Origin: Cordylochernes scorpioides
Lineage: Eukaryota
Direction of reading: 5' to 3'
DNA: 64,000 nucleotides
NCBI GenBank assembly: GCA_030710605.1
Contig: CP092864.1
Location: 139,481,418 to 139,545,417, forward strand
Each line of letters begins with the position of its first letter. The first letter of the stretch is position 1. Of this stretch, positions 18,501-60,110 are shown one piece after another. The notes beneath the pieces were generated by a model. The model searched no databases. It was not told the origin of the DNA and saw nothing but the letters and a program-made list of their open reading frames with translations. The position numbers and the translations under genes were made by a program.

Positions 18501-18958
18501 TTTTTTTTTTTTTGGATATGTTTTAGGAATTGTACATATCTATATTAACACACACAATTCCTTGGCGCCCTTAATAATTATGTTTATCTAGGAGGTACTA
18601 ATAGTTTGTTTGTATAGAATTGATGTTTAGACCATCCCACACCTCCACCATGAGGACCATGGCTGAGAACATGTGGACTTCACTCACATCTGGGCCAAGA
18701 CCCCCCCGGGTCACAGACAGCGAAAGGGTGGGCTTAGTACATTGCTCATTAAATGGTAGAGTAGAATTTCCTCCAGTACTTACATTGAGCTAACATGTTC
18801 CAGGTTCATGGCCCGTATATTCCTCCTTTGTCCGAGTGTCAGTGATTGCTTGCTGATATCATAAAAGAATGCATTTCCCCCGGCTTCATATTTCTCATAG
18901 ACTATAAACAGATATGAATTGGAATAAACGCATTCTTTCACTCTGGTGGGGGAGGAAT

Positions 18959-21900: not shown

Positions 21901-22094
21901 TTCCATTCTTCCAATTATAGTTCTTATGCTCAAGTGCTACATTGCTTATCTCTATATCAAACGCCTTGCCTATTGTGGTAGAGACCCAGTTACCAAAATG
22001 TTACATTTGCAGTTTTTTTTGATAAATAATTTTTTTGTATTAAGTCACTCCCTACATGCTCCGTTCTCGTAGGTCTAAAATAGGGAACGCGACA
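18959..22094 (+). repeat. B-type interspersed repeat, copy 2 (tail continues to ~22425)
   Basis: Near-identical to 2919-6049. About 70 bp upstream (18890-18958) is also homologous to the sequence upstream of A copy 2 (29130-29197). Confidence 0.85.
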
Positions 22095-24656
22095 GCTATT
22101 ACATATAAGTTACTTATATTATTGTTGATATTATTAGCTGGTACTAGGATATATTGTGTTATATGTTTCGGGCAAATCTATTTTCTATTAATGCTATTGT
22201 GTTTTCTGAATAATAGAAAATCAATTATAAGCCTTTGATATTTGCTGTTTATGTTATTGTAATGTATTCTAGGTTCTCCTAATGCGAAAGTGTGACCTGT
22301 TCCTTTGCAGTATTGGAAAATTAGAGACCTATTGTCTTGATTAATAACGTTGCATCTATGTTCATATATTCTATTGCTGACTCTCCTTCCTGTCTCCCCT
22401 GCGTATTTTGGCTTGGCAGCTGTATACACTCTGACAAGGGAAGGTTATCCTGAATTGACAAATGTATAATTTTTGTCTTTAGTAGAGATTTCCAAGACTC
22501 TATTTCTGAAACATTTTTTTTAGATGAAGACAAATAAAACCATCTTGATAGTATTGAATTTTACAGTAAATATTTGCCAGCAGAAGGCATGATGAGATTA
22601 CATGAAATTTAAACCAGTTATATGTTTAGTATGTTCCTTCAGTTGTAATTTGACACCGTCTTGAAATAAAGAAATTGGACGGTGCGCTATATCTTGATGC
22701 TGGATATTTCTGTGTCAGAAAGGTGTAGTTATTCTGTTTAATGAGAATTCCAATAATTATCGAAATTTAGCAGATTATCATTGGGGATTTGAACAACTGT
22801 CTTGAAAATTTTTGAACAGCCCGAGTAGATAGAAGAGTCCTAGAGTTAGAGTGGAGAATTAGTAGTACAGACTGACCACTCGACGCAGATAACTCTAGGG
22901 AACAATTACTGTGATAATCCGCCGTAGACAAGAAGAACATTGATTCTCAGGATACTCGATAGGCAGAATTTTGAGAATTGATAAAGTCATGGTTAAAGTT
23001 TACACAGGCATGTGGGAGTAAAGACAGTGATTTAAAGAGGCAGCCTTGTGTCTTAAATACTTTCAGTGGAAGCAGATGCCACTGCAAATATTCAGGTCTA
23101 ATAATTTCCAAATTTGAAGTCATGCATGACGGGTTAGCACGGGATTGACGCCTGGACGGGTTTCCACTGGGATTAATCGAGCTTGCGAAAGAACTAGAAG
23201 AAGTGTGACATGTCACGCCACTGTACTAAATTAATAATTGAGAAGATTTATGTTGAGCCAACTGAAATTAGTAAAGAATTAAGAGATTAAGGTCTTATTC
23301 TTTGAGTTTTACACTAATTTCAATTACGCGATATGGACGGCGTTATAAGTTGGGTGGAAATGATTCGGCCGCAATGGGATGGTCTCCTGGAGGTGGTACG
23401 ATCAAATACTTACTTATTGAATGCCGGGCGGGATCGCATGAAGCATTAAATGACATCGTGAAATGCTTAAAGAAACACCCTAGAAGATTGGGGATCGACA
23501 AAATGACGACATGGAAAATGCTCAACATTGTACATTGGCAGCAAAATGATATCTTGCTATTGTATGGACGACCACTCCTTCCTGAAATGTGCAGCGGATG
23601 TTAGTCCCAGAATTAGGTCCTTTGAGGCGACACTTTCCTTTGCAGATGACATAAAGACGCATGACAAAAACAGCACATGAGCATTTAAACTAACTTCAAT
23701 TCCTGCCATTAATTAATTTAGTTGACCAATAGCTATAGAACCGCTGGAGACCTCCATACCCTGTGTGAATATTTTAGTGAGAAATGAGCGATTCAATTCT
23801 ATGAGCTATGAGGTATCCTGTAAGATCAGAGCTGTACCCCATTCAATTTTTTTTATAGTAGCCAGTGCGAGATATTTCCAGAATGTTTGTTTCTTTTTTT
23901 TTCTAACTGTCATATAATTCGGAAACTAGAAAACTACACTATTTTGATACAGTTTACATCTAGCATCCATGAGAACTCAATATGACTATTGAACGTAGAT
24001 TGAAGACTAATGAGCGAGCCAACCTAAAGAGAACGAGTTTAATAGGCTTACAATCAATAGTTGAAGCAAACTATTCGCACAAATTTGTTATGTTCTCTCT
24101 CTAAATGATCTATGACATTATAGATTTTCTTAACAAGGTAACTACCCCGCCGAGTGTATATGGAGTTATAAAGCTTAAGGGTCATAGGCTGTTGGAATAG
24201 AGTAGTTCAAAATTAAGAGTGATAATAGATCGGGATCCAGATCCCGATGACGGGTTTCGAAGAGACTTCAGAGGGATGAAAGAGGTGTTGAAAGTGATGG
24301 AAGGGCGATGAAATATGATGAAAAAGGCGTTGAACTGTGTTATAAGGTGATGAATAAGAGATGAAATGTGTTGAAGGCGTTGAAGAGAGATGCGATGGAA
24401 GTAATTTGAAAGGCGTTGAGGATGATGAAGGATGATGAAAGAGTGAGAAAGCGTTGAATGTTGATGAGGAAGAGATAGAAAGATGCAGAAAGATGTTGAA
24501 AGAGAAAGAATTGAAAAAAGTTGGATAAAGGGTTTTGTAAATAGTAGATAAAGATTGATGGAAGAAAGTACATTTAATGTATAAAGCGTAGCTGTCGACC
24601 GCAATATCGCCTCGATAGAACTATTTCTTTTAAAATAAGACATATTATGCACTGGG

Positions 24657-27545: not shown

Positions 27546-29197
27546 CAAAGTTTTAGAAGTGTTGTATTGAGGACAGTAGAATTAAGAGCAGTTATACAGG
27601 GAGTAGAATTCTGAAGGAATTTGTAAAAGGAACCAAAATTTCAGATTGATAAAATTCAAACTTATAAGATATAGATTTATAGGATTCAGGTCAATGAATA
27701 GAGGGTATATTAGTAGATGAAAGTAATGTGAATTTCTTGGAAGGGGGAGGTAGCTGAACTGTACACACCCCAGAGGCAAGGTAAACGGAGCCACAAACAA
27801 AATAGTAGAAATTGATTAGTCGCTCTGCCAAAACAGAAAATTTCTCTTCATACGGTTGTCACCCTAGATTTAAATGGACTGTGTAGTTTAATAGAGGTCT
27901 GGGCTATGTTCCATTTGACCAAGATTCTAAATGACGTACCCATCTGGGTTGAGAGAGTATTGTAATTTGAGGAATCTAACACACAAGAGAGAACACACCC
28001 TCCAATAGGATCGGGATAGACGAATATTACCCAGTGACCAACTCGTGATTCCAGACTGAATAAGATTGAAAACTTAATTGAGATACTAAACCTTGATCCT
28101 TCAGCGCACAAATATACATTATGTTTACATTTTCTTTTTCAATATGTTATTATTTTTATATCATATATATTATATTATAGTCATATACTATTCATTTCAA
28201 CAATTTTATTTTGACATTCATGATATTCATATTTATATTAAATATTTAATTATATATATTTTGTCACCATATATAATCTTGTAGTAGTTTTCTTTTGTCA
28301 TCTATCATGGGATGATTTTTATCACTTATATCTTAACATATTTAATCACTATCTACATGATATGTTTTTACTTCAATATATATGTTATACTCATCATATA
28401 ACATGGAAGGATTCATTTTATCATTACATATTTCGTGCCTTATTTAATGATTACTTACATAATTTGTTTTCTGTAATTTTTATTTAGCAAAAGTCATCAT
28501 GTCATAGGCTAATCATTATATACCAAGATATTTCTTTCAGCTAACTATAATTATCCTTTCCTTTGATTGTATATATATATAACTATACCACACGAATGTC
28601 TTGATTGGTACGAAAATAAAGATGCTGGCATGTTTTAGGAGTTGGACTAGTCAGTTATTTCTAAACGACTTCTTGGCGCCCAATTTTTTATATATAATAT
28701 GTAATAGGGAAATGTCCTAACTGTATTGTTAGCAGAAAGAAGGTAGCAATGAATCCAGTACCCCAAGAGGCAAGGATGGGGTTGAGAGGACTTACCACTA
28801 GGAAGGCCTACTCCTCAAGACCAAAGAAGAAAGTGGAAGGGTGGTATATATACCCATGAATGGTAAGACAGATGACCTTGCTTACTTCCATACATATGAT
28901 ATGACTGTCCCCAATAACCTATTTTGATAACAGTGTTCTGACAGAATAATAGCACATAAAAACCCCTTTGCCAGGATGCGCAATGCCCACTAGTGTTCGG
29001 AATAATAAACATCTAGAATGGCATACCATCATTTTGACTAGCCTTACCTTCCCTATAGGTTTCGGTACACCTGGCTTCACCTAGTAATGGAAAATGCATT
29101 TTGCTAGAAATGGGCCTGCTTTCATAGTAACTGATGAAAGGCAGATGAATAATGAATAACACAAACGCATTTGTCCATTACTTGGCAGGGGGAGGAT

Positions 29198-30069
29198 TGT
29201 TGGGGCACGTTTTTGTAACCATACCCCAACAGAAGGCGTATGTATAATCAAATCAAATGGATACATGGCTTCCCTCCCACATAGACTTACAGACCATTCT
29301 TTTTGCCCAGAAACCTAGACAACAGATGACACCAGACTTCCATGCCGAAAGCTGATGCCTGGTAAAGAAGAAGACATCCAGAGACATCCGAGCTGGAAAC
29401 TGTTGTTTCATATGTACATATATTCCCCTCACCAAAAATTTAGGTAAAGGTGACCAGAAAAAAAAAAAAAAAAATGGAGAAGGAAGATCTCTAAAAGACT
29501 GAACCGAGAAAGGAAAGCGTTATATTACAGTGCAAGTGAAAAGGGGCCTGTGTCAATTTTAGCTAAGACGGAGGGGGGGAGCGATATATATATATCGTCC
29601 CGAGAAAAAGGGAGGATGATATTTCAATCCATGTGGATGGGAGGGCTGGCGTCTGAAATTTTACACTATCGCCGTAGATGTTACTCTCTTTAGATTTTTG
29701 TTTTGGTAATACTATATGTTCTATTTTGATGGAAGAGGCCTGGAGTCTGAAATCTTACACTAGTGCCATGTTGTTTCTCTTTTGAGATTTTTTTTTTGTT
29801 TTGGTAATACGATATGTTCTTTTTTTGGTGAGGCCTGGGGCGTCTATGAAATTGATACTGGAGCCGTTGGACATTTGGATTGGTTTTCTTTCGGCGAATG
29901 AAAATGGAGAGAGGGAGGATATAAAAGAAGGTTCTTTGCCAAAAGGCAGGATTCGATCGGAGTCGCTCAGTGAGAAGGACGATTTTTAGACGGGCCTGAG
30001 ACGTAGAGGAGACCAGACCTTGCCGCCGCTTTCGAGAGAAGGTAAGCCCCTTGCCATTATGGCTTAGCC

Positions 30070-30101
<32 letters not shown>

Positions 30102-30972
30102 CGAACAGAAGCTAATCTATTTAGATTCTGAATGGGCCCTAAAGGGCTTTAAGTGACTTAAAAAGGAGTGTTAGGGTTCGTATATTTTGTCCCGCTAGAA
30201 TAGATGGAGATCTAGGTTTCCCCCCCTTTTTGTGTAGTAGCCAACCTAGATTTCGCATGGGCCTTAAAGGGCTATAAAGTAACTTCAGGTCACCTCTATC
30301 TAAATTTTACTATGTAAATAGCATATCTCGTCAGTATAGACATGTTCCCAAATTTTAAGATATTTTAAATAAATGTCTAGAGAAATTTTCTTGTTTCCTC
30401 TGTTACCTATTTCATACATAATTTGCCTTATGGTGCTATTCCCACTGTTTAAATGAAATGTTGTATGTTTCTTACCTATTTGAAGGGAATGTTACTAATA
30501 ATCAAGTCTCCCATAAATTACCGGCCACATACATTGCCGCGAGTGTCTGTGTTTCAGTGTTTTATAGATTGCCCAATTTAATAACGATTTCATGGGTTGT
30601 CTGATAATATTGTATAATAGTGTCGCGGCTGTTTCCATCTTTAGACCATTGTTCTGACAATATTATATGCTCGATCCTTGCTTTAGCTCAACTCTTAATC
30701 AATTACAGAGTTTTTCCCCCCTTTTCTTTTTTATTTATTTTATTTATCCTGTTTGCATAAATTGCATTACATGTGATGATGTAAAGACATATGCCGATAG
30801 TGCATCACTGACAGCTGTGCTGCTATTATACAACATTAAGGTCTTGCTGTGGGTTATATACATGGGGTTGTTGGCCTAAATTGCTATATATATATATACT
30901 TAAGTAAGGAAACTTTTAATAAGATACATCGTGTATCCTCCCTTTTCAACTATCCAAACCGGGAACCCATCA
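29198..30972 (+). repeat. A-type interspersed repeat, copy 2
   Basis: Near-identical to 549-2310. It ends at the same AACCCATCA and is followed directly by the LINE 3' terminus. Confidence 0.8.
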
Positions 30973-32389: not shown

Positions 32390-33664
32390 TCGACACTTTG
32401 CTTATAAAATCCTGAAAACTCAATATATTTTCTCCCGGTTTGTGGCAAACGCAAGCGTCGCCCTTGGCTTGGAGACCTGCCAATTTTCAAAAATCACGCG
32501 CCACAACAGCGCGAGCAGCGGCTGAAGTGAAGCCATTTTGCCCGTGCTTCGATTTCGTTAGTCACCGAAATGGAGGATCAACGAATTTGGATCAAGTTCT
32601 GTGTGAAAAACAGATTCAAAGGTGCCAAAATTTCTGGATGTTGCAAACAGCCTACGGGGATGCCGTTATGAGCCGGAAACGAGTTTTCAAGTGGTACAAG
32701 CGCTTCAAGGAGGGTCGGGAAGAGACCGCCGACAACGAACGTTCCGGGAGACCGTCCACATCAACCACGCCTGAAAAAGTGGACAAGGTGTTGGAACTGG
32801 TGCGTGAAGACCGACGAATAACTGTCAGGGAGGTCACCGAAGAAGCAGGGATATCATTCGGGTCGACTCAATCGATAATGAAGGACATTTTGGGAGTGAG
32901 AAGACTCAACGCCGTTCTCGTTCCCAAAGATTTGACTTTTGATAAAAAGAACGCCCAGAAAGAAACGGCCAGTCTCAATCTTGAAGCGGCAACCGACGAC
33001 CCCGAATTGCTGAAGAGGGTCATTACTGGAGACGAAACATGGATTTACGATTTTGATTAGGAAACTACCCAACAGACATCGGAGTGGCGCTTCAAAAATG
33101 AGCCGAGACCAAAGAAAGCGAGGAAGGCTCTCAGCAAAGTCAAGGTCATGTTGACGGTGTTCTTCGACTACCAGGGCATCGTTCATCATGAATTTCATCA
33201 ACAAGGCTCTACAATAACTGCTGACTCCTACCTGGAAGTTTTGAGGCGATTGAGGGAAGCGATCAGGCAGAAACGGCCGGAGCTGTGAAGGAGCAAGTCG
33301 TGGATCCTCCACCACGATAACGCGCCGGCGCACACAGCCCTCAAAATCTCGAAGTTCCTGCAGGACCACTCAACCTCTGTGTTCCCTCAATCCCCCTACA
33401 GTCCCGATTTGGCCCCCTGCGACTTCTTCCTTTTTGGAAAGCTAAAAAAAAGTTAAAGGGTCGGAAATTTCAGAGCATAGAAGAGATCAAAGTGGAATCG
33501 AAGGCCATGAAGGCGATCCCGAAAACAGACTACCAGAGGTGTTTTGTCGACTGGAAAAAAAGGTGGCTGAAGTGCATCGCGGCCAACGGGGACTACTTTG
33601 AAGGGGACAATTTGAATTTGGTAGAATAATAAAGTTTTTTTTTAAGTTATGAGCAAAGTGTCGA
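32390..33664 (+). mobile_element. mariner-like element (about 1.27 kb) nested in the LINE, with 18-bp terminal inverted repeats TCGACACTTTGCTTATAA / TTATGAGCAAAGTGTCGA
   Basis: Encodes a mariner transposase with an HTH region (RITVREVTEEAGISFGSTQSIMKDILGV), ITGDETWIYDFD, HHDNAPAH and a C-terminal SPDLAPCDFFLF..DYFEGD. The terminal repeats have one mismatch. Confidence 0.8.
32570..33625 (+). pseudogene. mariner transposase pseudogene (frameshift near 32600-32640; stops at 33058 and ~33287)
   Basis: The N-terminus MEDQRIWIKFCVKN is in a different frame from the 206-aa ORF at 32440-33060. Downstream segments need further frame changes. Confidence 0.8.
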
Positions 33665-38868: not shown

Positions 38869-39101
38869 TTTATGTATAAACAAGGATTGACAATAGAATA
38901 TATGAAGGATGTGATTGAAAGTTTTTTTCATTTATTGGGTAAAAAAAACAGCAAACTTTCAAGCATTAGCCTTTTATAAGGACATTGAGTCTGCATAGAT
39001 GAGCACTACAATAATTCAACCCACTATAATATTCAACAGGAAGTACCTTTTCCTTAGGGAATGGAATTAAAGATATTTGACTGTATATATATGTCATAAT
39101 T

Positions 39102-39798
39102 TGTAAATAGCTGTATGCAACCCCGACCCAATATGTATGCAATGTATGTTTCAAAGACTTAATAAAGAATAAGGTAACTGGAGGATAGAACGCCTTAGAG
39201 AAACAAGGCCTAGAAAAGAGGCTTAAGAGTCAGCACAACCATTAGCAAAATTACAGCCAATTTTATGATCGCGGAAATAATAAAACTTGAGTTCAACGAC
39301 ACAGTATTTCCTGGTCGCGTCAGGACAAGTCCAAAAGACAAAGAAATTAGCAAGGACCAATTAGGAAGCAGCTTCCCAAAGGTCAACCAATAGAAAACGG
39401 CCACGTCCCACCTTTCGACCAATGGGAAAGAAGATAGGTCTTGGTGTTAAATCGAGAACCTAGGATAGGCAATCTTCGACTCGCTCCCATCGGGATAACA
39501 CCTATAGTAGTTGTTTCGCTCCCACCGAGTTCGGACCTAGTTCACTTCGCTCCCACCAAGATAGCACCTAAAGTCAATCACCGCCATGTGAATCGATAGG
39601 CCAATAGTCAGAAACCGCTCCGCCTTCTTTCAAGCCTTTCTTTCCTCCAACCAGTTGCCTTTTATTTTCAACCCATCAAGTGTCCTGGCTTATTTCCCCT
39701 GGTGTGTAAACCTTACCACTCAGCCACCACGACTGCGCCACCACCTCAACAATCACCAACCCCAAGAGTAAGATTTCCCAGCATAGAATATTACGATA
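39102..39798 (+). repeat. 5' long terminal repeat of the non-autonomous LTR-like element
   Basis: Direct repeat of 42156-42852. The minus-strand ORFs 39210-39422 and 42264-42476 are identical. Confidence 0.75.
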
Positions 39799-42155
39799 GC
39801 TATTGAAAGCCGACAGGATAAAGATGGAGATTAGCCAAGACGCCAGCAAAACAAACGGCAATGACAAACCGAGAAAGAAGAAACTGGCGACGAGCGGAAA
39901 GAAGCTAGCAAGAAGCGAGGCGACCAGACGCCTTCTAGCGGCCATTATATGGCAGATGACAGTGGCCCTCCGACGAGTCAACGCCACGCAAGGTGAGACG
40001 GAGTTCCGGAGCGCCATCCCCCGGGGAGGACGACGGACACAACCCCCGCCAACCCCAGGCAAGAGGGACGGGACAGCCGACGCCCGTGCCACCACCCCAG
40101 GCAAGTGTCAACGTGGCCGGACACCGACCACCGAGGAGTCCTCCACCGCCATGCCGTATCCGTACACCGCACCCGAAAGTAATCCACGCGACCCGGGACA
40201 GTGCAAACAGTCCCAAAACGATATCCCAGTACCGGACTTCACTTCAATTCCGCGGACCGTGCAAGCAGTCCTGAGCCCCAATCAGCCGCCCCAAGCCTAA
40301 GACGCCCCAGCCGAGCAGACCTTTCGAGACTGAGGTAGGCACCCACCCTATGGCGTCAAGAAATTGGCTTTGGACTTATATCTAACCCTACCTACCTCTT
40401 TAATCATGTATCCAACCTTGTACCCAATGAATGCACGCACGGGCTAGGCCAAACCTGTCCGAAAGGACTTGCACTGCAATCAAATTTTTCACACAGGACA
40501 ACCCTTGCCTGCATTCATTGACCCAACTACAACTCTTTATATGCCACCATTCTAATCTCACACCACGCAACTTTTCACTCAACCCAATTACCAGTACTAT
40601 ATGCCCGCAACTCACAAGCCACAACGGCTTCAACAATCACCATGCCCAAAAAACGTGTCCATACAACAGCACAGCACACAATTACCACGCGAAATCCATA
40701 CATGACCATACGTCGTCACACAACAATCACACAAATGTACCTCATAACAAACGACAATCACAACAGCAAAACACAGACGACATCCATCCAACAGGACGGT
40801 TTTTCACGCTAACAACATGCCTCACGCTAACAACACACGCACCCATACGTCATCACGCAACAAACACGCACAACCCGCCCAACAAGCGCGACACTCGCGC
40901 CAAAAGACGACAACAACCAGTAAGCACATGCACATCCGTTAGTAACAACACCCTCGTCTAACCAAAACACTAAAAATTTTCACATTAAAAAGTGCCATGT
41001 GCACTAACAATAAAAATTTTCGATATATGTTCGTGCAACCAGCACCCCTAACTCTAGTAAATTTGTTGTTCATAGTGAGAACAGGTTAAATTTTGTACAA
41101 ACAAAGGCTTCACGTGACACCTTCTCATTTACAATTTTTTTTCGATTCGTGTCACAGGTCACACCACAAAATTTTTCACTTCAGGCCAAAGACGCCTTCA
41201 CCACGCCTGTGACACTTCTCAACTCAAAACGTGTCCACGTTGAAAGCCTCACTTTCACTTAATTCCACTCTAATATCACTGAATAGCATTTTTACTAAAG
41301 TCACAACGACCATTCGATTTAATAAATGGATACAATATCCGGATTTTCAAAATACAAATAATGCCGAAACTACACCAACTCATCTCTTCACAATGTTATT
41401 GGCAGAACATAACACACGACAATACAAAAAGAGGTAAAAACCTTTCCCACCTGCCGATTTGCTAGAAGAATCGATGAATCCAACCAACCTCCACGTAAAA
41501 ATACCGACACAACCCACAAACTAAACAAAATTCGTACACAAAACACAGCGTATACACAATACAAACAATGCCGAAATTACATCACCTACGTCAGAGAAAC
41601 GATTACACATCTCCACTTAAACCAATTACCGCCGACATATCTCTAATAAAACCATTGACGATCAAACAGGAGAACGGCGAACCTGACAATCATTTAAATT
41701 CTACAATTAATAAGGTTCAAACAAATATTTCAGAATCACCATTTATAACAATATGGAAGAACATGTATCAATACCCTATCTTTCATCTGATTTTTATCCT
41801 TTGTCTGCTAGTCCTACCCTATAAATGTACCCCAGTTTTATTCCTGCTAATATATCTGGTAATCTATACCATGCCCTCCCATAGCGTTTTCGAGCTGCAA
41901 GAAGCAGTTTTTCATTTTGGACAAGCATTCGTAAAACTTATTATAATTTTAGGAAACATTTTTGCAGAAAATCTAAATAAATTCCGAGGAGATAGAAGTA
42001 ACTGAAAGGTAACAAACCAGTGCCGAAAGAAAGAAAAAAATCCCCACGCCAATAAAATAAGTAGAGAGACAATAAAAGATGCAAGTCGCACACAAAATCA
42101 ATTAGCACAAAGACAATTAGACGGCGGACAGGAAGCGTAGTTCCGCGAGGCGATT

Positions 42156-42852
42156 TGTAAATAGCTGTATGCAACCCCGACCCAATATGTATGCAATGTA
42201 TGTTTCAAAGACTTAATAAAGAATAAGGTAACTGGAGGATAGAACGCCTTAGAGAAACAAGGCCTAGAAAAGAGGCTTAAGAGTCAGCACAACCATTAGC
42301 AAAATTACAGCCAATTTTATGATCGCGGAAATAATAAAACTTGAGTTCAACGACACAGTATTTCCTGGTCGTGTCAGGACAAGTCCAAAAGACAAAGAAA
42401 TTAGCAAGGACCAATTAGGAAGCAGCTTCCCAAAGGTCAACCAATAGAAAACGGCCACGTCCCACCTTTCGACCAATGGGAAAGAAGATAGGTCTTGGTG
42501 TTAAATCGAGAACCTAGGATAGGCAATCTTCGACTCGCTCCCATCGGGATAACACCTATAGTAGTTGTTTCGCTCCCACCGAGTTCGGACCTAGTTCACT
42601 TCGCTCCCACCGAGAAAGCACCTAAAGTCAATCACCGCCATGTGAATCGATAGGCCAATAGTCAAAAACCGCTCCGCCTTCTTTCAAGCCTTTCTTTCCT
42701 CCAACCAGTTGCCTTTTATTTTCAACCCATCAAGTGTCCTGGCTTATTTCCCCTGGTGTGTAAACCTTACCACTCAGCCACCACGACTGCGCCACCACCT
42801 CAACAATCACCAACCCCAAGAGTAAGGTTTCCCAGCATAGAATATTACGATA
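42156..42852 (+). repeat. 3' long terminal repeat of the non-autonomous LTR-like element
   Basis: Direct repeat of 39102-39798. Confidence 0.75.
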
Positions 42853-44877: not shown

Positions 44878-45206
44878 TATATAAATATCAAAGATAGATT
44901 TAACTTTATCATTTATATATTGAATGTCTTTGCGGACCTATTGTCCTAATGAATAGCTAACACTTGAAAGCTTGCTATTTTATCCAAAAAATGAAATGAT
45001 TTGCAATCAGGCTTTGTTGATTACAATGTTGAAGAGTTTTGCTTGTATACTAGTGAGGTTAGGCTTAGAGCGGACAAAACTAACTAGGCTTGGGAGCCAT
45101 TTTATTCTCTTTTTACTAGTCCAGGGATCAAAATTTAAGTTGAAATAGATAGAATAGGTGTTGAATTATAGTCAATTGAATGAAAGAAAATAGCAACTAA
45201 GAATTC

Positions 45207-45408
45207 TGCAACATCTTCGTACACATTTATTTTTAGCAAATCTTTATTGTCTTAGTAAAGTCTGATACAGCCTTTTATTGTTTATTTTCGGAACGCCAAA
45301 AAGTGACAAAAACAAATCAAAAAGGGATGATGATAACCTGCGTCTTGCAGATTAACATTTTCATAGAAACATATATATATATACATATTTATTGCTAGCT
45401 ATATATCA
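45207..45408 (-). repeat. 3' LTR of gypsy-like element 2
   Basis: Identical to 49562-49763. Confidence 0.9.
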
Positions 45409-45421
45409 CCATCTTCTCTCT

Positions 45422-46372
45422 TCAAACACGAAATCTCACAGGCGGTCTCCTCGCTCGAGGTGGGTTCCGCCTTAGGACAGGACCCTCCTCTTTCAAGGCC
45501 TCGGGGTCCAGCGAGCGAAGAGGCTCCAATGACTTTCCATCGTCTGTATCACTCTGAACCTCTGAATCTTGATCCGACCGCTGGCTAGTTAGTCCTGGCG
45601 ACAGCGACTCCATATAACCTCTGTCTCGTACAACCTCCGAGATTATGGCACTGGGACCTGCTCCTCTTGAGTGCTCGGGTTGACGCTCTCCATCTCCACT
45701 CTCATCTTCCTCACCATTCCTCCACCTTTTTCTAATTTGATCCCTGTGATAGGCCTTTACCTGTCCGTGGATCAAAATGGTGTAGACTCTAGTTCCCTTC
45801 TTGCCCACAATTTTTCCTGGGATCCATTTATCACCACCTCTAAAGTTTTTACACCACACTAAATCATCTATCTGGAATTCTTCCAAATGGGTTCGCCGAT
45901 CATACTTCATTTGCCTGGCTTGCTGGTCCCTAACTCTAGATGCCAAGCTGGGATGTATCAACGATACTCTGGTTCGAAGCGCACGCCCAATAAAGAGCTC
46001 TGATGGAGTCTTTCCCGTTGTCACATGCGGGGTGCTTCGATATGCCAGAAGAACTTTTGATAAGGTGTCTTGAATGGTATCCCCAATTTTCCTTTTATTT
46101 TTATCCAGGGCAGTCTTAATTGTTCTAACCGCTCTTTCAGCCAAGCCATTACTTTGCGGGTGGTACGCCGGGATCAATGTTTGTTTAATTCCATTTCCTT
46201 CCAGAAAACCTTTCATTTCACTACCAGTAAACTGAGGTCCATTATCAGATACAAGTTCCTCCGGTAGACCATAGGAAGAAAAAAGTCGCCGTAGTTGCTC
46301 AATGGTTTTGCGTGTGGTGGTCTCTCTCATTGGGATGGCTTCGATCCACTTTGAATGACTATCTACTACTAT
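45422..46372 (-). CDS. pol: Integrase catalytic core and C-terminus, in the same frame as the upstream Gag-Pol ORF and separated from it only by one TGA (46373-46375)
   Basis: Reading through the TGA gives ...HIDFANKENINL*IVVDSHSKWIEAIPMRETT..., which is the expected integrase D-region. The rest contains SDNGPQFTG and HPQSNGLAER (DDE core). Confidence 0.85.
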   Translation of the reverse strand: MVVDSHSKWIEAIPMRETTTRKTIEQLRRLFSSYGLPEELVSDNGPQFTGSEMKGFLEGNGIKQTLIPAYHPQSNGLAERAVRTIKTALDKNKRKIGDTIQDTLSKVLLAYRSTPHVTTGKTPSELFIGRALRTRVSLIHPSLASRVRDQQARQMKYDRRTHLEEFQIDDLVWCKNFRGGDKWIPGKIVGKKGTRVYTILIHGQVKAYHRDQIRKRWRNGEEDESGDGERQPEHSRGAGPSAIISEVVRDRGYMESLSPGLTSQRSDQDSEVQSDTDDGKSLEPLRSLDPEALKEEGPVLRRNPPRARRPPVRFRV

Positions 46373-49300
46373 TCATAAATTAATGTTTTCCTTATTTGCA
46401 AAATCAATGTGAATTCTTTGCCAAGGTCTGGTTGACCATTTCCAGGGTTGCCATTTTCCTTTATTTGGCCCATCCTGGGATTGCTGACAGCTTCTGCACT
46501 TATTTACCAAAAACTCGATTTGGGTATCTAGATTTGGCCACCAAAAATGTGATCTTGCTACAGCCTTCATTTTGTTCATACCAGAATGAGTCTCATGAAG
46601 ACAGTTCAACATTTTTATTCTGAGAGATGGTGGAATGACAACTCTCATTCCCCAAACCAAACACTCCCCATCTACAGTTAGCTCAAGTTTCCTTTGAAAA
46701 TAAGGTCTGAGGTGATCAGCCACCTTTTCAGGCCAGCCTTGCTGAGTATAAAATTTGGCCAATGAGAGCACTTCGTCTTTTTCAGTTTCTGTGGCAATTT
46801 CCTCTGCTGTGATCGGCAATTCTTCCACATAGGATAAAGCATAGACATTATTTAATCTTGGAATTTCTTCACAGCCCACAGGAAAACGTGACAGAAGATC
46901 TGCATTCCCATGGTCTTGAGTTCTTCGAAATTTAATATCGTAAGTATAAGCTGACAAAATAAGCGCCCAACGCTGCAATCTTGAAGTAGATAAGGTGGGG
47001 ATTCCTGATCTTGAGCCCAAAATGGTCACCAATGGCTTATGGTCTGTAATAAGAATAAATTTTCTTCCATAAATAAATTGATGAAACTTGGTAACTCCAT
47101 AAATAATGGCTAGAGCCTCCTTCTCAATCTGAGAATAATTTTGTTCTGCTACCGATAAAGTCCGTGAGGCAAACATAATCGGTCTCTCCTGGCCTTCTAT
47201 AATATGTGACAACACAGCGCCCACTCCAATCTGCGATGCATCAGTGGCCAAACACAATGGCAAAGTCGCATCATAAGGGACTAGCACCCTCTCAGAGGTA
47301 ATGCTATTCTTGCACTTGTCAATGGCCTCTCCACATTCCTTTGTCCAAACCCAAGGACGTTTTTTGTGAAGAAGCTCATGAAGAGGCTTCAAAAGCTCTG
47401 GCAAATTGGGTATGAACTTCCCATAAAAGTTTACCAAACCAAGAAATGACCTTAATTCAGAGATATTCGTAGGCGTTTTGGCCTTCTGTATTGCTTGTAC
47501 CTTATGATCTAAAGGTCTGATGCCCTCTTCCGTGACAAGATGTCCTAAATATTCAATTTCTTTTTGCAAAAATAGGCATTTTTCTTTCTTTAGTTTGATA
47601 TTATACTTCGCCAAGCGAGCAAATATAGTCTTCAACAACGCCAGATGTTCTTCAATTGATGCTGTGGCTATAAGGACATCATCAATATAACAAATTACGC
47701 CTCCTATACCTGACAAAACCCTATCCATTACAGATTGAAAATAACTGGGCGCATTTGCCAATCCAAATGGCATTCTCTTAAACCTGAAAAGCCCTTTATG
47801 AGTATTTATCGTTAGTAACGGTCGGGTGCCTGGGTCCACCTCTAATTGCAGATAAGCGTTCCTCAAGTCCAATTTAGAAAAGTATTTTCCCTTGGCCAAT
47901 GTGGAGAATAAATCTTGCTGTGTGGGAAGGGGATAGGCCGCAGTGTCCAAATATTTATTTAGAGTTACCTTGAAGTCGCAGCAAATTCTGATCTCTTTAT
48001 TTTTCTTCGGCACTACAACCACTGGAGTGGCCCATTTACTGCTCGCCACCTCACATAGATAACCCTTAGCCACCATTTTGTCTAATGCTTCAGTAACTGC
48101 TGGCCTAATGGCGAAAGGCACCGGACGAGCCTTATGGAAAATTGGATTCACATCACACATGTTTACTGAAAATGTGAAACCTTTTATTGGTTCGGTTGTC
48201 TCCACAAATAGGGCTTGATTTTCCTTCAAAATTTCCTCAATGGTAATTTCCACAGGCATATGTTTTACCGCGAAACAGCCCAATTTCAATCTATTTATCC
48301 ATTCTCTTCCCATCAAAGCCCTCTTTTCTCCTTTCACCACCAACGCTCTAAGTTTGTAAGTAATATCTTGACACTCCACTTTGACATTGATTTTACCCAG
48401 AATGGGTACCACGGTACCATCATAAGTTCTTACAATAATACTCGCTTTTTCCAATTTCAAGTGTTGAAGACTATTTTTAAAATCCTTTTCTGATATCAGT
48501 GTTAGACCACTACCCGTATCCATTTCAAATTTAATAAAGTTTCCTTCTACTTTTAACTCCATCAGATAGGGAGGGTCACTTGAGGCAAAATTAATTTTAT
48601 ACTCAGGTATCGTCACGCTTATAATTTTCTGGACATACTCTTCCTCCTCTTCTTGGTCTCCTATCTGATGTATATTTCCCGGCTGATTCTGATGTTGCCT
48701 TAGATTTCTTCTACTGCTCCAACATATTGAGGCAATGTGTCCTTTTTTATTACACTTAAAGCATATCGCCTCCTTAAATCTACATAGTTCTTTATGCTGT
48801 TTACCACAATGTTTACATTTGCCATTCTGGAAATTTGAATCAACCTTGCGTTCCATCCTCAACTTATCTACACAATCTTCACCCTGCTCCAAGTGAAATA
48901 ATTTTGTATTTTTCTCGGCCGCTTCCATAGATAATGCTATCTCAATTACTTTAGCTAAAGAAATGTCGCCCTCCGACAAAATTCTATTTTGTATTTTGGC
49001 ATTATATAATCCACAAACCATTTTATCACGTAAAGAATCCTCCAGAAAATTTCCAAAGTTGCATGAGGAAGCCAAACGCTTAATTTCCACCAAGTAATCC
49101 GAGATGCTTTCTTCCTTTAATTGCATTCTTTTAAAAAAAATGAACCTCTCTACTACAATTGAGCGCTTTGGAGAGAAGTGCCTTTTCAAGATATCTATTA
49201 GGTTATCAAAAGTTTTATCTTTAGGTAGAATAGGACTGCACAAATTCTTCAAAACACCATATGTTTTACTTCCCATGAGGGTTAGGAGATAAGCCTTTTT

Positions 49301-49408
49301 CTTCTCATCCCCTGCCTCCTCCAATATGAGAAACTGTTCCAATCGTTCATAAAACGTTTCAAAAGTTTCAGTTTCCTCATTATATTCCTTAAATTGGTAA
49401 CTAGCCAT
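46373..49408 (-). CDS. gag-pol: Fused Gag-Pol: gag with two CCHC knuckles (CKHCGKQHKELC, CFKCNKKGHIASIC), protease (FEMDTGSGLT), RT (CYIDDVLIA), RNase H (LATDASQIGVGAVL), integrase zinc finger (HETHSG..CRSCQ)
   Basis: 1011-aa ORF. gag and pol are in a single frame, with no frameshift. Confidence 0.9.
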   Translation of the reverse strand: MASYQFKEYNEETETFETFYERLEQFLILEEAGDEKKKAYLLTLMGSKTYGVLKNLCSPILPKDKTFDNLIDILKRHFSPKRSIVVERFIFFKRMQLKEESISDYLVEIKRLASSCNFGNFLEDSLRDKMVCGLYNAKIQNRILSEGDISLAKVIEIALSMEAAEKNTKLFHLEQGEDCVDKLRMERKVDSNFQNGKCKHCGKQHKELCRFKEAICFKCNKKGHIASICWSSRRNLRQHQNQPGNIHQIGDQEEEEEYVQKIISVTIPEYKINFASSDPPYLMELKVEGNFIKFEMDTGSGLTLISEKDFKNSLQHLKLEKASIIVRTYDGTVVPILGKINVKVECQDITYKLRALVVKGEKRALMGREWINRLKLGCFAVKHMPVEITIEEILKENQALFVETTEPIKGFTFSVNMCDVNPIFHKARPVPFAIRPAVTEALDKMVAKGYLCEVASSKWATPVVVVPKKNKEIRICCDFKVTLNKYLDTAAYPLPTQQDLFSTLAKGKYFSKLDLRNAYLQLEVDPGTRPLLTINTHKGLFRFKRMPFGLANAPSYFQSVMDRVLSGIGGVICYIDDVLIATASIEEHLALLKTIFARLAKYNIKLKKEKCLFLQKEIEYLGHLVTEEGIRPLDHKVQAIQKAKTPTNISELRSFLGLVNFYGKFIPNLPELLKPLHELLHKKRPWVWTKECGEAIDKCKNSITSERVLVPYDATLPLCLATDASQIGVGAVLSHIIEGQERPIMFASRTLSVAEQNYSQIEKEALAIIYGVTKFHQFIYGRKFILITDHKPLVTILGSRSGIPTLSTSRLQRWALILSAYTYDIKFRRTQDHGNADLLSRFPVGCEEIPRLNNVYALSYVEELPITAEEIATETEKDEVLSLAKFYTQQGWPEKVADHLRPYFQRKLELTVDGECLVWGMRVVIPPSLRIKMLNCLHETHSGMNKMKAVARSHFWWPNLDTQIEFLVNKCRSCQQSQDGPNKGKWQPWKWSTRPWQRIHIDFANKENINL

Positions 49409-49561
49409 TTTTTTTTCACTCTTTCTTAAATTTGCATCCTAAAACTTTGCAATTTGTGTCTTTTAAAATTTACTTTCAATTATATGCAAAATCAAAGATA
49501 TTTTCTAAAAATATTTACTTCAAAATTCGAGGGTACTTACTCTTATATCCTCGTCGCCAAA

Positions 49562-49763
49562 TGCAACATCTTCGTACACATTTATTTTTAGCAAATCTTT
49601 ATTGTCTTAGTAAAGTCTGATACAGCCTTTTATTGTTTATTTTCGGAACGCCAAAAAGTGACAAAAACAAATCAAAAAGGGATGATGATAACCTGCGTCT
49701 TGCAGATTAACATTTTCATAGAAACATATATATATATACATATTTATTGCTAGCTATATATCA
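49562..49763 (-). repeat. 5' LTR of gypsy-like element 2
   Basis: Identical to 45207-45408. Confidence 0.9.
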
Positions 49764-49889
49764 AATTCTTCTAACACAATCAAGTATTGGAGATTTGAAA
49801 CAATCTAGTTCAATAATATGTGAAATCCTCCTACAGTTCACTCCTAGAGTTCACTTCTTACACTAATAATATTTACAGTACTTTAAAAT

Positions 49890-52492: not shown

Positions 52493-54004
52493 CTAGACGA
52501 ATGGCCCGGGCAACGCCCGGGGTTTACCCGAGTGCGAATATATTTTAAAAACGTTGTCTTGGGTGGTCGCTATAGACAGGGTGGTCTGTATAGACAGGTG
52601 TATGTATCACACTGCTGATAACAGGGTTGCCTGAAGTGACCGCTATAGACAGGGTGGTCTGTATAGACAGGTGATTGTAACACACTGATGATAACAGGGT
52701 TGCCTAAAGTGACCGCTATAGACAGGGTGGTCTGTATAGACAGGTGGATGTATCACACAGCTGATAACAGGGTTGTCTAGAGTGGCCGCTATAGACAGGT
52801 GTATGTATCACACAGCTGATAACAGGGTTGTCTAGAGTGGTCGCCATAGACAGGGTGGTCTGTATAGACAGGTGTATGTATCACACAGCTGATAACAGGG
52901 TTGTCTAGAGTGGTCGCTATAGACAGGGTGGTCTGTATAGACAGGTGAATGTATCACACAGCAGATAACAGGGTTGTCTAGAGTGGCCGCTATAGACAGG
53001 GTGGTCTGTATAGACAGGTGGATGTATCACACAGCTGATACCAGGGTTGTCTAGAGTGGCCGCTATAGACAGAGTGGTCTGTATAGACAGGTGGATGTAA
53101 CACACTGCTGATAACAGGGTTGTCTAGAGTGGCCGCAATAGACAGGGTGGTCTGTATAGACAGGTGTATGTATCACACTGCTGATAACAGGGTTGCCTAA
53201 AGTGACCGCTATAGACAGGGTGGTCTGTATAGACAGGTGAATGTAACACACTGATGATAACAGGGTTGCCTAAAGTGACCGTTATAGACAGGGTGGTCTG
53301 TATAGACAGGTGGATGTATCACACAGCTGATAACAGGGTTGTCTAGAGTGGCCCCTATAGACAGGTGTATGTATCACACAGCTGATAACAGGGTTATCTA
53401 GAATGGCCGCTATATACAGGGTGGTCTGTATAGACAGGTGGATGTAACACACTGCTGATAACAGGGTTGTCTAGAGTGGTCGCTATAGACAGGGTGGTCT
53501 GTATAGACAGGTGTATGTATCACACTGCTGATAACAGGGTTGCCTAAAGTGACCGCTATAGACAGGGTGGTCTGTATAGACAGGTGAATGTAACACACTG
53601 ATGATAACAGGGTTGCCTAAAGTGACCGCTATAGACAGGGTGGTCTGTATAGACAGGTGAATGTAACACACTGATGATAACAGGGTTGCCTAAGGTGACC
53701 GCTATAGACAGGGTGGTCTGTATAGACAGGTGGATGTAGCACACTGCTGATAACAGGGGTGTCTAGAGTGGCCGCTATAGACAGGGTGGTCTGTATAGAC
53801 AGGTGGATGTAACACACTGCTGATAACAGGGTTGTCTAGAATGGCCGCTATAGACAGGTGTATGTATCACACAGCTGATAACAGGGTTGTCTAGAGGGGG
53901 GCAGGGAGGTCACGTGTTCATCCGGCAGCCAATGGGCGCGCATTCTATCCGTGAGCTTCAGACATACAGACAAACAGACAGAATAAGGCAAATATATAAG
54001 TAGA
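52493..54004 (-). mobile_element. Helitron-like non-autonomous element carrying a 73-bp tandem array and a G-tract, CACGTG, CCAAT module
   Basis: On + it begins with a|CTAGACGAATGGCCCGGGCAACGCCCGGG (the reverse complement of a 3' hairpin plus CTAG). On + it ends with ...CAAATATATAAGTAGA (5' TCTACTTATATATT on -). Near the 5' end is GGGGGGCAGGGAGGTCACGTG..CCGGCAGCCAATGGGCGCGC. Confidence 0.65.
52560..53890. repeat. Minisatellite: about 18 tandem units of ~73 bp (CGCTATAGACAGGGTGGTCTGTATAGACAGGTGNATGTANCACACNGNTGATAACAGGGTTGNCTNNAGTGNC), with some 55-bp short units
   Basis: Direct reading. The minus-strand 62-aa MCYIHLSIQTTLSIA ORFs are repeat artifacts. Confidence 0.9.
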
Positions 54005-54209: not shown

Positions 54210-54280
54210 TGCATCGGCCGGGAATCGAACCCGGGCCGCCCGCGTGGAAGGCGAGCATTTTACCACTGAACTACCGATGC
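54210..54280 (-). tRNA. trnG-UCC: tRNA-Gly (anticodon TCC), 71 nt, with a downstream T(10) Pol III terminator
   Basis: The minus-strand sequence GCATCGGTAGTTCAGTGGTAAAATGCTCGCCTTCCACGCGGGCGGCCCGGGTTCGATTCCCGGCCGATGCA folds as a cloverleaf. It has a 7-bp acceptor stem, box A TAGTTCAGTGG, an anticodon loop CTTCCAC and box B GGTTCGATTCC. It is highly similar to metazoan tRNA-Gly-TCC. TTTTTTTTTT follows the 3' end. Confidence 0.85.
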
Positions 54281-57081: not shown

Positions 57082-57140
57082 CTGCAGTTAGTAATCCTGA
57101 AAATTTCAATGAGCCAAGTAAGCAGAGGCAATGATTTTAA

Positions 57141-59285
57141 CCCTTTAAGCGCCGAGGTAACGATCCATCGTTACCCTATAACGTCACCAGGAGCGCCGGG
57201 GTACCGATCTATCGTTACTTCCTTGTAGGGCCCCTCGTGGGGGAGGGGGTGGTGGCTGGCTATTTTTATCACCTCCCTTCTCACTTCTGGGCTTGTCTCT
57301 ACACGTTAGCTGTGTTTTTATCTCCTTTGTCTTGCGATTTCCTTTTTTTATTTTTAATTTTTTAAAAATGGCTTCCGGTTCAGAATGCTCTGCATTTTCT
57401 GAGGACACTGAAGTTTATTCTTTGTCTTCTGAGTTTGAAGAAAGTGTTGAAGACACTTTTGAAGATGAATTTTCTGATGAAGAAGTGGATGAAAACCAGC
57501 CAAGTCCTTGGGTAAGAGTTTATACTCCATTTTCCACATCTAAAACGTTGACTTTTGGAGAAGTTTGTGGCCCACAGCACCTTCCCCCCTCTATTATCCG
57601 GCCTATTGAATACTTTTTGTTATTCATAACAATTAATTTGATGAAGGAAATTGTGGCTTTTACCAATAAATGTGCCCAAACTTTATTGGCAAGCAATAGG
57701 GACAAATTGCCTCTATTTTCTAGGAAGCTGGCCTGGAAGGACACTACCTTGGATGAGATGATGGCCTTTATTGGAGTCATCTTCAATATGGGCAATGTGA
57801 AGAAGAACCAAATCAGGGACTATTGGAGCAAGAATGAACTTTTAGAGACGCCCTGGTTTGGTAAAGTTATGTCTAGAGGGAGATTTGAGTTGCTCTACAG
57901 CTGCTTTTCTCTGATTGATGACTCCAACCTGGTTCCAAGTTCTCATCCTGATTACAACCCAACTGCAAGATTTGAGAAGCTCATAGAGCATGTGAACAAC
58001 AAGTTTATATATTATTATAAGCCTACTCAAAATCTTACAGTTGATGAGAGCTTGGTGTGCCTAAAAAACCGAACTCGTCTTAGACAATATATGCCCCAAA
58101 AGCACCATGGTCGATTTGGAGTCAAACTGTGGATGCTTTGTGAATCTAAAACTGGCTATTGTCTGAGAATGAAGCCATATAAAGGGAAATTATCTCCAAT
58201 TATCAAGTCCCTTTCCTATGATGTTCCAATGAATCTGCTCCAGGAATCCAGTTTACTTGGAAAAGGTTATCATTTGATAACTGACAACTTTTTCACCAGC
58301 ATCAACCTAGCCAAGGACTTACTGGACAGTCATACTTATTTGACTGGTACTATAAGAACTAATAGGAAAGGACTTCCTAAAACCTTAAAAAGTGCAAAAT
58401 TAGGTGTTGATGAATCCCTTTATATGGTAAATAATAATCTACTGGCCCTGGCTTACAAAGAAAAGAAGAGCAAACCTCCAGTGAAGTTTCTCTCAACATT
58501 TTGTGATGCTTCTTCTGGCAAAAAGAAGGTGTCAGACCAAAGAGACTACCCACAGATGAAAATATGCTATGATAGCTACATGGGAGGGGTAGATCTCAAT
58601 GATCAAATGTTGTATACATATATGGATGAAAGAAAAGGAAGAAAATTTTATAGAAAGGTGATCCTCAACATCTTCCACAGGGCTTTCCTAAACTCCTTCA
58701 TCCTATATGAACAGCATACCAAAGACAACCCCAAGCTTTCTAGAAGGGCTTTTAACTATTCAGTAATAAATGAATTAGTTAAAAATCACTTGAAACCTCC
58801 AGTACTGCCTTCAACAAGCCAGGAAGTACTCGAAAAACTTCCAGAAAAGAGAGAGAGTAGATGTGTGGAGTGTACAAAAGAAGGCCTGAAGCGGAGGTCT
58901 AGAACCATATGTTCAAAGTGCAAGAGAGGCTTGCATCCAGTCTGTGCTTTTAAACACAAGTGTTAGCTTTGTAAATAGCCTTGTATATATCTAAAATTCC
59001 TTTTTATATTTGTAAAACCTTATTTTGAAAAATTCAAGTCGATTATTCAATTAATTATAATTAACCCCCAATTAAAAAATTAAATACTCACTCCAGTATA
59101 ATAAAATCAGAGTGTTGTGTTGAGAGAGGAGTCTGGATTATATTACACTTTACAGAACACTTCTATCTATCATATTTATTTATTTATAACATTTTTTACT
59201 TAACAACTACTTGATCATCAGTTTAGGCTTAATTAGTGTGGTCCTGATAGTGATAGTTAGCATTCGGGCCCTAGAGCTTAAAGGG
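57141..59285 (+). mobile_element. piggyBac-family DNA transposon (2145 bp) with TTAA target-site duplications and terminal inverted repeats CCCTTTAAGC / GCTTAAAGGG
   Basis: TTAA at 57137-57140 and 59286-59289. The terminal 10 bp are perfectly inverted, with partial matches beyond. A single intact transposase ORF lies inside. Confidence 0.85.
57368..58966 (+). CDS. piggyBac transposase (about 533 aa from MASGSECS), intact ORF with a DDD catalytic region and a C-terminal Cys-rich domain (CVECTKEG..CSKCKRGLHPVCAFKHKC)
   Basis: Conserved piggyBac blocks: DESLVCLKNRTRLRQYMPQKHHGRFGVKLWMLCESKTGYCLRMKPYKGK, GYHLITDNFFTS, LTGTIRTNRKGLP and YDSYMGGVDLNDQ. There are no internal stops. Confidence 0.9.
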   Translation: MASGSECSAFSEDTEVYSLSSEFEESVEDTFEDEFSDEEVDENQPSPWVRVYTPFSTSKTLTFGEVCGPQHLPPSIIRPIEYFLLFITINLMKEIVAFTNKCAQTLLASNRDKLPLFSRKLAWKDTTLDEMMAFIGVIFNMGNVKKNQIRDYWSKNELLETPWFGKVMSRGRFELLYSCFSLIDDSNLVPSSHPDYNPTARFEKLIEHVNNKFIYYYKPTQNLTVDESLVCLKNRTRLRQYMPQKHHGRFGVKLWMLCESKTGYCLRMKPYKGKLSPIIKSLSYDVPMNLLQESSLLGKGYHLITDNFFTSINLAKDLLDSHTYLTGTIRTNRKGLPKTLKSAKLGVDESLYMVNNNLLALAYKEKKSKPPVKFLSTFCDASSGKKKVSDQRDYPQMKICYDSYMGGVDLNDQMLYTYMDERKGRKFYRKVILNIFHRAFLNSFILYEQHTKDNPKLSRRAFNYSVINELVKNHLKPPVLPSTSQEVLEKLPEKRESRCVECTKEGLKRRSRTICSKCKRGLHPVCAFKHKC

Positions 59286-60110
59286 TTAAACCAGGGCAAA
59301 TAAGACTTTACCACCCTGATTAAAAACTCATCTATGATAAGATACAATTTGGATTATAGATCAGAAACCAAGATAACAGAACCAAATACAAATAGTATGT
59401 GAAGTTTCAGGAAAAAGGGTTGTTACCATCATCAGAAAAAAGTTTTCTTGATTGGCTCTGTCTGCCTTGCTAGCAACATCTTTTCTTTTTTAATCGTAAC
59501 TCAATCATATTAGGCCTGTAGAGCTTGAGATTTATATTGTCTGCTGGGGATGAGTACAGCTCATCAATGGATGAGTCAATGCTATGCTGGCAACAACAGC
59601 ACCCTCTATGGTCACCTCAAGCTCCACAAGGTGGGTTGGTCCAGATAGACATTTACTTATTTGGATTTGGTCTTGTTACCGTATGTTAAAAACTTGTCTA
59701 TTACATAAATATTTCAACTACAAGACTTTTCATTAAAACTTGTAATAAAAGCTTCCATTTGATGCTAAAAAAATGCACTCGCAAGACAAGTTGACTCCTA
59801 AGAGATAGGTTAAATAAAAAATTGGTTATAAAAACATAAAACTATTCTTTCTTTGGAAAGTACAATCCTCTGCAATACATATAAATAATAAACAAAATGG
59901 CTTCATAGGATCAGTTTCTTATTTTATTTTATATCCCTCTCAAGCTTTCGTGTATCACAAACCCTTCTACAGGACTCCTGAAGGCAGCTTTGAGATACCA
60001 GAAAGCTTTAGAATAATATAAAATGTAAGAAATTCATCCTATGAAGCTCAAAGTGATATGACCAAATCTAAATAAATAATGTCACACTATTTATGTGTGT
60101 TTATAATCTA

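Follow-up and report, generated by a model that had tools for sequence, protein, structure and literature searches.

Ty3/gypsy (Metaviridae) elements carry a TG..CA pair of LTRs, a 5-bp target-site duplication (TSD), a tRNA-complementary primer-binding site (PBS) and a polypurine tract (PPT), and they encode a CCHC gag, the domain order PR-RT-RNaseH-IN, an H2C2 zinc finger and a DDE integrase. Stop-codon read-through is used by some retroelements, the UAG of gammaretroviral gag-pol being the established case, and UGA-C and UGA-CUAG are known leaky UGA contexts. Among compact elements, the mosquito Mag-like families tabulated in PMC3286476 have a total length of ~4.5-5.3 kb, LTRs of ~140-210 bp, one or two ORFs and TSDs that are mostly of 5 bp, and their PBS pairs with tRNA-Ser or tRNA-Leu.

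A minus-strand LTR retrotransposon of 4557 bp lies at positions 45207-49763 of the window, the 64-kb stretch of Cordylochernes scorpioides DNA that was analysed here. It has each of the Ty3/gypsy features listed above, and it differs in that gag and pol share one ORF, without a frameshift, and in having a nonsense codon in integrase. Its features, in window coordinates, are the following.

45202-45206, target-site duplication AATTC, left copy on the plus strand (3' side of the element), by direct sequence reading
45207-45408, minus strand, 3' LTR (element orientation), 202 bp, TG..CA, 0 mismatches to 49562-49763
45409-45423, minus strand, polypurine tract GAAGAGAGAAGATGG, adjoining the 3' LTR and overlapping the ORF stop codon, by direct sequence reading
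45425-46372, minus strand, post-stop frame of 316 codons, rest of the integrase core and C-terminal tail (Pfam rve; alignment to prototype foamy virus (PFV) and Ty3 integrases)
46138-46136, minus strand, catalytic Glu E1091 (NGLAER), from the PFV integrase alignment
46246-46244, minus strand, second catalytic Asp D1055 (VSDNGPQF), from the PFV integrase alignment
46373-46375, minus strand, premature TGA, codon 1012, context TTA TGA ATA, from the sequence and paralogue comparison
46405-46403, minus strand, first catalytic Asp D1002 (HIDF), from the PFV integrase alignment
46636-46475, minus strand, integrase H2C2 zinc finger (Pfam Integrase_H2C2, residues 925-978)
46376-49408, minus strand, upstream part of the gag-pol ORF, 1011 codons (ORF list, Pfam)
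47347-46946, minus strand, RNase H (Pfam RT_RNaseH, residues 688-821)
48013-47540, minus strand, RT (Pfam RVT_1, residues 466-623)
48559-48290, minus strand, aspartic protease (Pfam, PR residues 284-373)
48820-48716, minus strand, two CCHC knuckles, in the upstream ORF part
48839-48841, minus strand, missense codon 190, GAT (Asp), Glu in 17/17 paralogues covering this codon
49375-49007, minus strand, gag-like region, in the upstream ORF part
49547-49559, minus strand, primer-binding site TGGCGACGAGGAT, 2 nt (TT) 3' of the 5' LTR, a 13-nt match to tRNA-Ser(GCT)
49562-49763, minus strand, 5' LTR (element orientation), 202 bp, identical to 45207-45408
49764-49768, target-site duplication AATTC, right copy on the plus strand, by direct sequence reading

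All cis signals for the replication cycle are present: the LTRs are identical, the PBS is of the tRNA-Ser(GCT) type, and there is a PPT. LTR-LTR identity is 100% over the 202 bp and ends exactly at both boundaries, and both LTRs start with TG and end with CA. The AATTC repeats flank the element directly, a match that would arise by chance with a probability of ~0.001 (estimated from window base composition), and the empty-site sequence around the target reads ...CTAAGAATTCTTCTAAC... A published primer that is complementary to human tRNA-Ser(GCT) at its 3' end (PMC9072684) begins with the same 13 nt as the PBS, so the assignment is made through a human tRNA. These observations bear out the initial annotation, which had proposed paired identical 202-bp LTRs, a 5-bp duplication, a PBS-like sequence and a PPT. 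A search of the 64-kb window found no further copies or solo LTRs of the element and no paralogous empty site.

A single frame runs from the ATG at 49408 to a natural stop at 45424-45422, and its sole internal stop is the TGA at 46375-46373, as had been noted at the outset. This frame comprises 1329 codons including both stops, that is, 1328 sense positions, rather than the 1314 codons counted initially. The Pfam matches fall in the order gag-like, two CCHC knuckles, PR, RVT_1, RT_RNaseH, Integrase_H2C2 and rve, with rve profile positions 29-102 matching the frame 3' of the premature stop. No chromodomain or env was detected.

These features support classification of the element as a small, single-ORF LTR retrotransposon of the Ty3/gypsy type, in line with the gypsy-like affinity first proposed. 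This affinity is drawn from Pfam families, domain order and the best match among solved structures, which is Ty3 Gag-Pol (PDB 7q5b). For example, integrase lies 3' of RT (PR-RT-RNaseH-IN), unlike in Ty1/copia; the gypsy-type families RT_RNaseH/RT_RNaseH_2, Integrase_H2C2 and gag-asp_proteas are all matched; and a Pfam search of the polyprotein returned zero matches to the Bel/Pao markers Peptidase_A17, DUF1758 and DUF1759. Domain order and Pfam families together rule out a Ty1/copia or Bel/Pao assignment. In addition, the size of 4557 bp, the 202-bp LTRs, the one ORF, the tRNA-Ser PBS and the 5-bp TSD give the element a profile like that of the Mag lineage (Bombyx mag, sea-urchin SURL and the mosquito cqgypsy Mag-like families), a likeness that is a resemblance of structural profile only.

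The best 28 protein matches are all 'K02A2.6-like' or hypothetical C. scorpioides proteins, many of them with 92-100% identity over 80-100% of the query, and they are encoded on contigs of 64-224 Mb; the chromosome assembly of the species bears the locus-tag prefix LAZ67. More than 20 family copies with 92-100% protein identity are spread over many C. scorpioides chromosomes; for instance, UYV63828.1, UYV74754.1, UYV64475.1 and UYV85151.1 match the window polyprotein from end to end at 99.2-99.8% identity. All of this paralogue evidence is at the protein level. Some of the paralogue models are open across the whole polyprotein. Because there are so many close copies on many chromosomes and some uninterrupted models among them, the family looks recently active in this species, as the initial annotation had anticipated. 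These 'K02A2.6-like' proteins are sister copies of the same transposable element (TE) family, differing from the window element at codons 1012 (Leu) and 190 (Glu), and their database entries are chimeric gene models in which the TE is fused to adjacent TEs or genes. A literature search found no TE paper for C. scorpioides and no clade assignment for the 'K02A2.6-like' proteins; small-RNA data from testis are available for the species (PMC6305488).

Relative to the majority family consensus, the window protein differs at 2/1328 positions, E190D and L1012*. The identical LTRs and a protein this close to the consensus support the view, also taken initially, that the window element is a very young, recently integrated copy. 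Zero differences over 202 bp bound LTR divergence only to <~1.5% (95% Poisson bound), and since the LTRs are this short, the term 'very young' leans partly on the near-consensus protein.

The premature stop had been placed initially between the integrase zinc finger and the first catalytic Asp. Alignment to PFV integrase instead positions it 10 codons past D1002 and before D1055, inside the integrase catalytic core. The predicted integrase product therefore lacks D1055, E1091 and the entire C-terminal part. An autonomous copy would be expected to encode uninterrupted Gag, PR, RT and RNase H and a full DDE integrase, and in this copy that coding capacity is broken by the TGA at codon 1012.

Two explanations had been put forward for this stop, a recently inactivated copy and a codon that is read through, and a search for sense codons in other copies had been named as the evidence that would tell against the second. 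Codon 1012 is sense in 20/20 same-family copies covering the site (19 Leu, 1 Ile), in a sample that is biased against copies sharing the TGA because gene models exclude stops. Sister subfamilies of 62-70% identity have Leu at this codon, and the residue is hydrophobic in 103/103 aligned homologues (L, F, Y, M, W or I) and in 88/88 more distant homologues covering the site. The TGA can thus be said to be missing from all 20 sampled copies, and its uniqueness genome-wide would be a further claim. The ancestral codon was probably TTA (Leu), in which case the simplest change is the single-base substitution TTA to TGA; this ancestral codon is inferred only, because the paralogues were compared as protein sequences. 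The substituted base is window position 46374, which is C on the plus strand and G in the element sense strand.

If the UGA were a programmed read-through or recoding signal, a fraction of ribosomes would yield full-length integrase, and the 316 codons that remain open past the stop do still encode a consensus integrase core. An open frame is, however, expected anyway for so young a copy. The arrangement recalls murine leukaemia virus (MLV) and other gammaretroviruses in placing an in-frame stop upstream of pol-derived coding sequence, but it differs from their gag-pol read-through in conservation, position and context. The stop is not conserved, being found in 0/20 sampled family members and 0/103 homologues; it lies between D1002 and D1055, inside the integrase core and at no gag/pol boundary; and the base that follows it is A (UUA-UGA-AUA), which is not a known leaky context. 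No stable RNA structure was found downstream either, as the 120 nt from the stop have an MFE of -17.6 kcal/mol, whereas shuffled controls average -22.4 and are thus more stable (z = +1.41, when folded without pseudoknots). Conservation of the stop, a stimulatory 3' context or structure, and a position at a module boundary are thus all lacking. Read-through or recoding at codon 1012 was therefore rejected on paralogue codons, stop context and folding, and we regard it as extremely improbable; of the two initial alternatives, the recently inactivated copy is the one that stands. Selenocysteine at the UGA was considered in passing, and Leu in every relative gives it no support. The loop 'ANKENINL', which replaces the common 'AGPFxGxxF', was considered as a frameshift scar and set aside, as the same loop occurs in all family copies and in the sister subfamilies.

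The copy is otherwise consensus, its codon lies one base away from the one inferred for the family, and multicopy repeats that are >99% identical are hard to polish, so the TGA could be a sequencing or assembly error in a true copy that has TTA and is fully intact and autonomous. Finished assemblies seldom contain substitution errors, though, and the window has no sign of poor sequence quality. The second private substitution, E190D, also fits real low-level divergence. An error of this kind is considered quite unlikely.

It is also conceivable that the stop was already in the template RNA, and that the copy is one of an integrase-null sublineage relying on trans-complementation to spread. Several paralogues on different chromosomes have identical internal gaps; for example, P0003 and P0009 both lack the second-zinc-knuckle residues, and P0010 and P0092 have the junction VVESSRRNL in common. 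If real deletions, these gaps mean that defective derivatives are being copied, but they may be no more than identical 'introns' placed by the gene predictor in near-identical sequence. None of the listed protein models ends in ...ENINL or starts with MRETTT, as models of copies with the stop should, and the sense codon in every one of the 20 sampled copies also argues against such a sublineage, which we consider unlikely. A variant in which low-level near-cognate decoding of the UGA gives weak autonomy, or in which integrase-null copies like this one form a parasitic sublineage regularly propagated in trans, is considered very unlikely.

The locus is thus very probably a recently integrated copy from a multicopy Ty3/gypsy family; the copy has acquired an integrase-truncating nonsense mutation and can no longer act as an autonomous element. 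In gag, PR, RT and RNase H, its predicted protein departs from the family consensus only by E190D. The nonsense codon would end translation within integrase, leaving the copy unable to make active integrase and so unable to move on its own. The TTA to TGA change may have arisen in the round of reverse transcription that made the copy, or after integration. Intact sister copies could still provide integrase in trans and so mobilise the RNA of this one.

The finding has little import beyond genome annotation, and UGA read-through inside integrase is an attractive idea that fails. The C. scorpioides 'K02A2.6-like' gene models can be recognised as chimeric TE fusions. In addition, a compact, single-ORF Ty3/gypsy family that looks recently active is documented in a pseudoscorpion, and the window element, as a clean reference copy two codons off the consensus, could seed a TE library.

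The sequence at 45207-49763 on the minus strand is a complete LTR retrotransposon of 4557 bp, with the following landmarks:

45207-45408 and 49562-49763: LTRs, 202 bp each, with 0 mismatches
45202-45206 and 49764-49768: AATTC flank on both sides of the element
49559-49547, minus strand: primer binding site (PBS), reading 5' LTR, then TT, then TGGCGACGAGGAT
45423-45409: polypurine tract GAAGAGAGAAGATGG, adjoining the 3' LTR and overlapping the natural ORF stop
48841-48839, minus strand: codon 190, GAT (Asp), which is Glu in 17 of 17 other copies

Both LTRs start with TG and end with CA, and the identity between them stops precisely at both edges; the identical LTRs and AATTC duplication reported in the initial annotation were seen directly, with the PBS-like sequence (after the 5' LTR) and the polypurine tract (before the 3' LTR) also in place. 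All 13 nt of the PBS coincide with the start of a published primer, 5'-TGGCGACGAGGATGGG..., which is the complement of the human tRNA-Ser(GCT) 3' end, the match having been made to the human tRNA (PMC9072684). Mosquito families of the Mag lineage have a tabulated structural profile (PMC3286476) that this element resembles (4.6 kb, 202-bp LTRs, a single ORF, a tRNA-Ser PBS and a 5-bp target site duplication), and this profile, taken by itself, provides a lead to Mag membership.

The gag-pol region is a single frame that runs from the ATG at 49408 to the stop at 45424-45422 and comprises 1328 sense positions, not the 1314 codons counted initially; as first noted, it contains one in-frame TGA, at 46375-46373 (codon 1012). 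Pfam matches follow the order weak gag-like, two CCHC knuckles, aspartic protease, RVT_1, RT_RNaseH, Integrase_H2C2 and rve, and include no Bel/Pao-specific families. The position of integrase downstream of reverse transcriptase and this lack of Bel/Pao families indicate a Ty3/gypsy arrangement, and the top solved-structure match is Ty3 Gag-Pol (7q5b), all of which agrees with the original description of the element as gypsy-like.

The catalytic triad of prototype foamy virus integrase is D128/D185/E221, and alignment to this protein places the corresponding residues of the element at D1002 (HIDF), D1055 (VSDNGPQF) and E1091 (NGLAER). The stop, which had been positioned ahead of the first catalytic Asp, therefore falls 10 codons past it, in the next beta strand (NL*IVVDSHSKW), and the Pfam rve core match after the stop begins at profile position 29. 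A truncated product would retain Gag, protease, reverse transcriptase, RNase H, the zinc finger and D1002, and would lack two of the three catalytic residues plus everything downstream.

When the full polyprotein was used as a query, the best 28 matches were 'K02A2.6-like' or hypothetical proteins of C. scorpioides, many of them 92-100% identical across 80-100% of the query and located on chromosome-sized contigs (64-224 Mb). The annotated 'K02A2.6-like' proteins (P0001-P0026, e.g. UYV63828.1 and UYV74754.1) are chimeric gene models of 1.5-2.3 kaa that join the element's polyprotein to unrelated transposable elements (a second gypsy, mariner, copia-like) or host genes; within such models the polyprotein can be uninterrupted (residues 1-1323 in P0002, 3-1328 in P0007). 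Looking for a sense codon in other copies, as had been proposed, gave one in all 20 same-family copies that cover codon 1012 (19 Leu and 1 Ile, at the protein level). Sister subfamilies at 62-70% identity likewise read ...NLLIVVDSHSKW at the site, and the position is hydrophobic in 103 of 103 aligned homologues, which reach down to ~35% identity in spiders, bivalves and insects (L 83, F 11, Y 6, and I, M and W once each).

Programmed read-through of the UGA, raised in the initial annotation, fails every criterion tested, since the stop is not conserved, carries no stimulatory signal and lies inside the catalytic domain instead of at a module boundary. Its context is UUA-UGA-AUA, and a UGA followed by A is not known to be leaky; relative to shuffled controls, the 120 nt starting at the stop form a less stable fold (z = +1.41). 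Neither the 3' context nor the folding of this segment revealed a stimulatory signal. The open 316-codon frame past the stop is simply what would be expected of so young a copy.

Compared with a majority consensus protein built from the paralogues, the window copy differs at 2 of 1328 positions, E190D and L1012*. The Leu codon beside the stop is TTA, TGA is one step from TTA, and ATA is the sole Ile codon one step from TTA. As the adjoining TTA has both TGA and the Ile variant one step away, the simplest inferred history of codon 1012 is a single TTA to TGA transversion; an assembly error at this one base is an unlikely alternative.

The absence of differences over 202 bp bounds LTR-LTR divergence at < ~1.5% (calculated 95% Poisson bound), so LTRs this short date the insertion only loosely by themselves, and the near-consensus protein provides independent support for the youth of the copy. 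One to two substitutions per ~4 kb of internal sequence predict ~0.1-0.2 differences between the LTRs (calculated), making their identity fully compatible with mutation during or after insertion. Together with the many C. scorpioides copies at 92-100% identity, some uninterrupted over the polyprotein, these data support the proposal that the gypsy-like insertion is very young and that its family was recently active.

Several other repeats occupy the same window. An apparent giant Ty3/gypsy element of ~19.2 kb (2915-22098, plus strand) has 3.1-kb direct repeats (2919-6049 and 18959-22094, 99.5% identical, TGTT...GACA) with a 4-bp GCTA at both sides, and directly after the left repeat TGGCGCCCAACGTGGGGC (6051-6068), which we take to be a tRNA-Lys(CTT)-type PBS. 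Its gag ORF (11076-12077) is uninterrupted and overlaps a pol ORF of 1171 aa (12011-15526; RT, RNase H, H2C2, rve and SH3_Tf2-1 domains) in a frameshift-type layout. It is bracketed by a 1.8-kb direct repeat pair (542-2310 and 29192-30972, 98.9% identity), for which a nested older element and a segmental duplication are both possible explanations. The piggyBac-like DNA transposon at 57136-59290 (plus strand; ends TTAA|CCCTTTAAGC ... GCTTAAAGGG|TTAA) is compact and may be intact, given its uninterrupted 557-aa ORF (57293-58966) and DDE_Tnp_1_7 match (E = 4e-71), and an ORF fragment with mariner/Tc1-type HTH domains (HTH_32, HTH_48; 32440-33060, plus strand) is probably a decayed DNA transposon. 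Direct repeats of 700 bp (39099-39798 and 42153-42852; 5 mismatches, 3054 bp apart), which show no clear TG..CA ends and enclose ORFs without a Pfam match, may form a non-autonomous LTR-like element. The window also holds a ~1.3-kb tandem-repeat array (52553-53896; self-alignment offsets in multiples of ~73 bp, 86-94% identity) and a tRNA-Gly(TCC) gene (54210-54280, minus strand) called by both ARAGORN and Rfam.

In the window copy the cis signals are intact, the protein from gag to RNase H equals the consensus save for E190D, and the integrase ORF is truncated. Such a copy would be dead as an autonomous element, but intact sister copies could supply the proteins for packaging and integrating its RNA. 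Identical internal gaps recur in some paralogues on different chromosomes. They could be real deletions, in which case defective derivatives would be copied in trans; just as well, the gene models could have the same predicted 'introns' placed in near-identical sequence. Judged by its sequence, the element is an ordinary recent transposable element copy with a nonsense mutation absent from all other sampled copies, and it adds one more to a well-known kind of retrotransposon.
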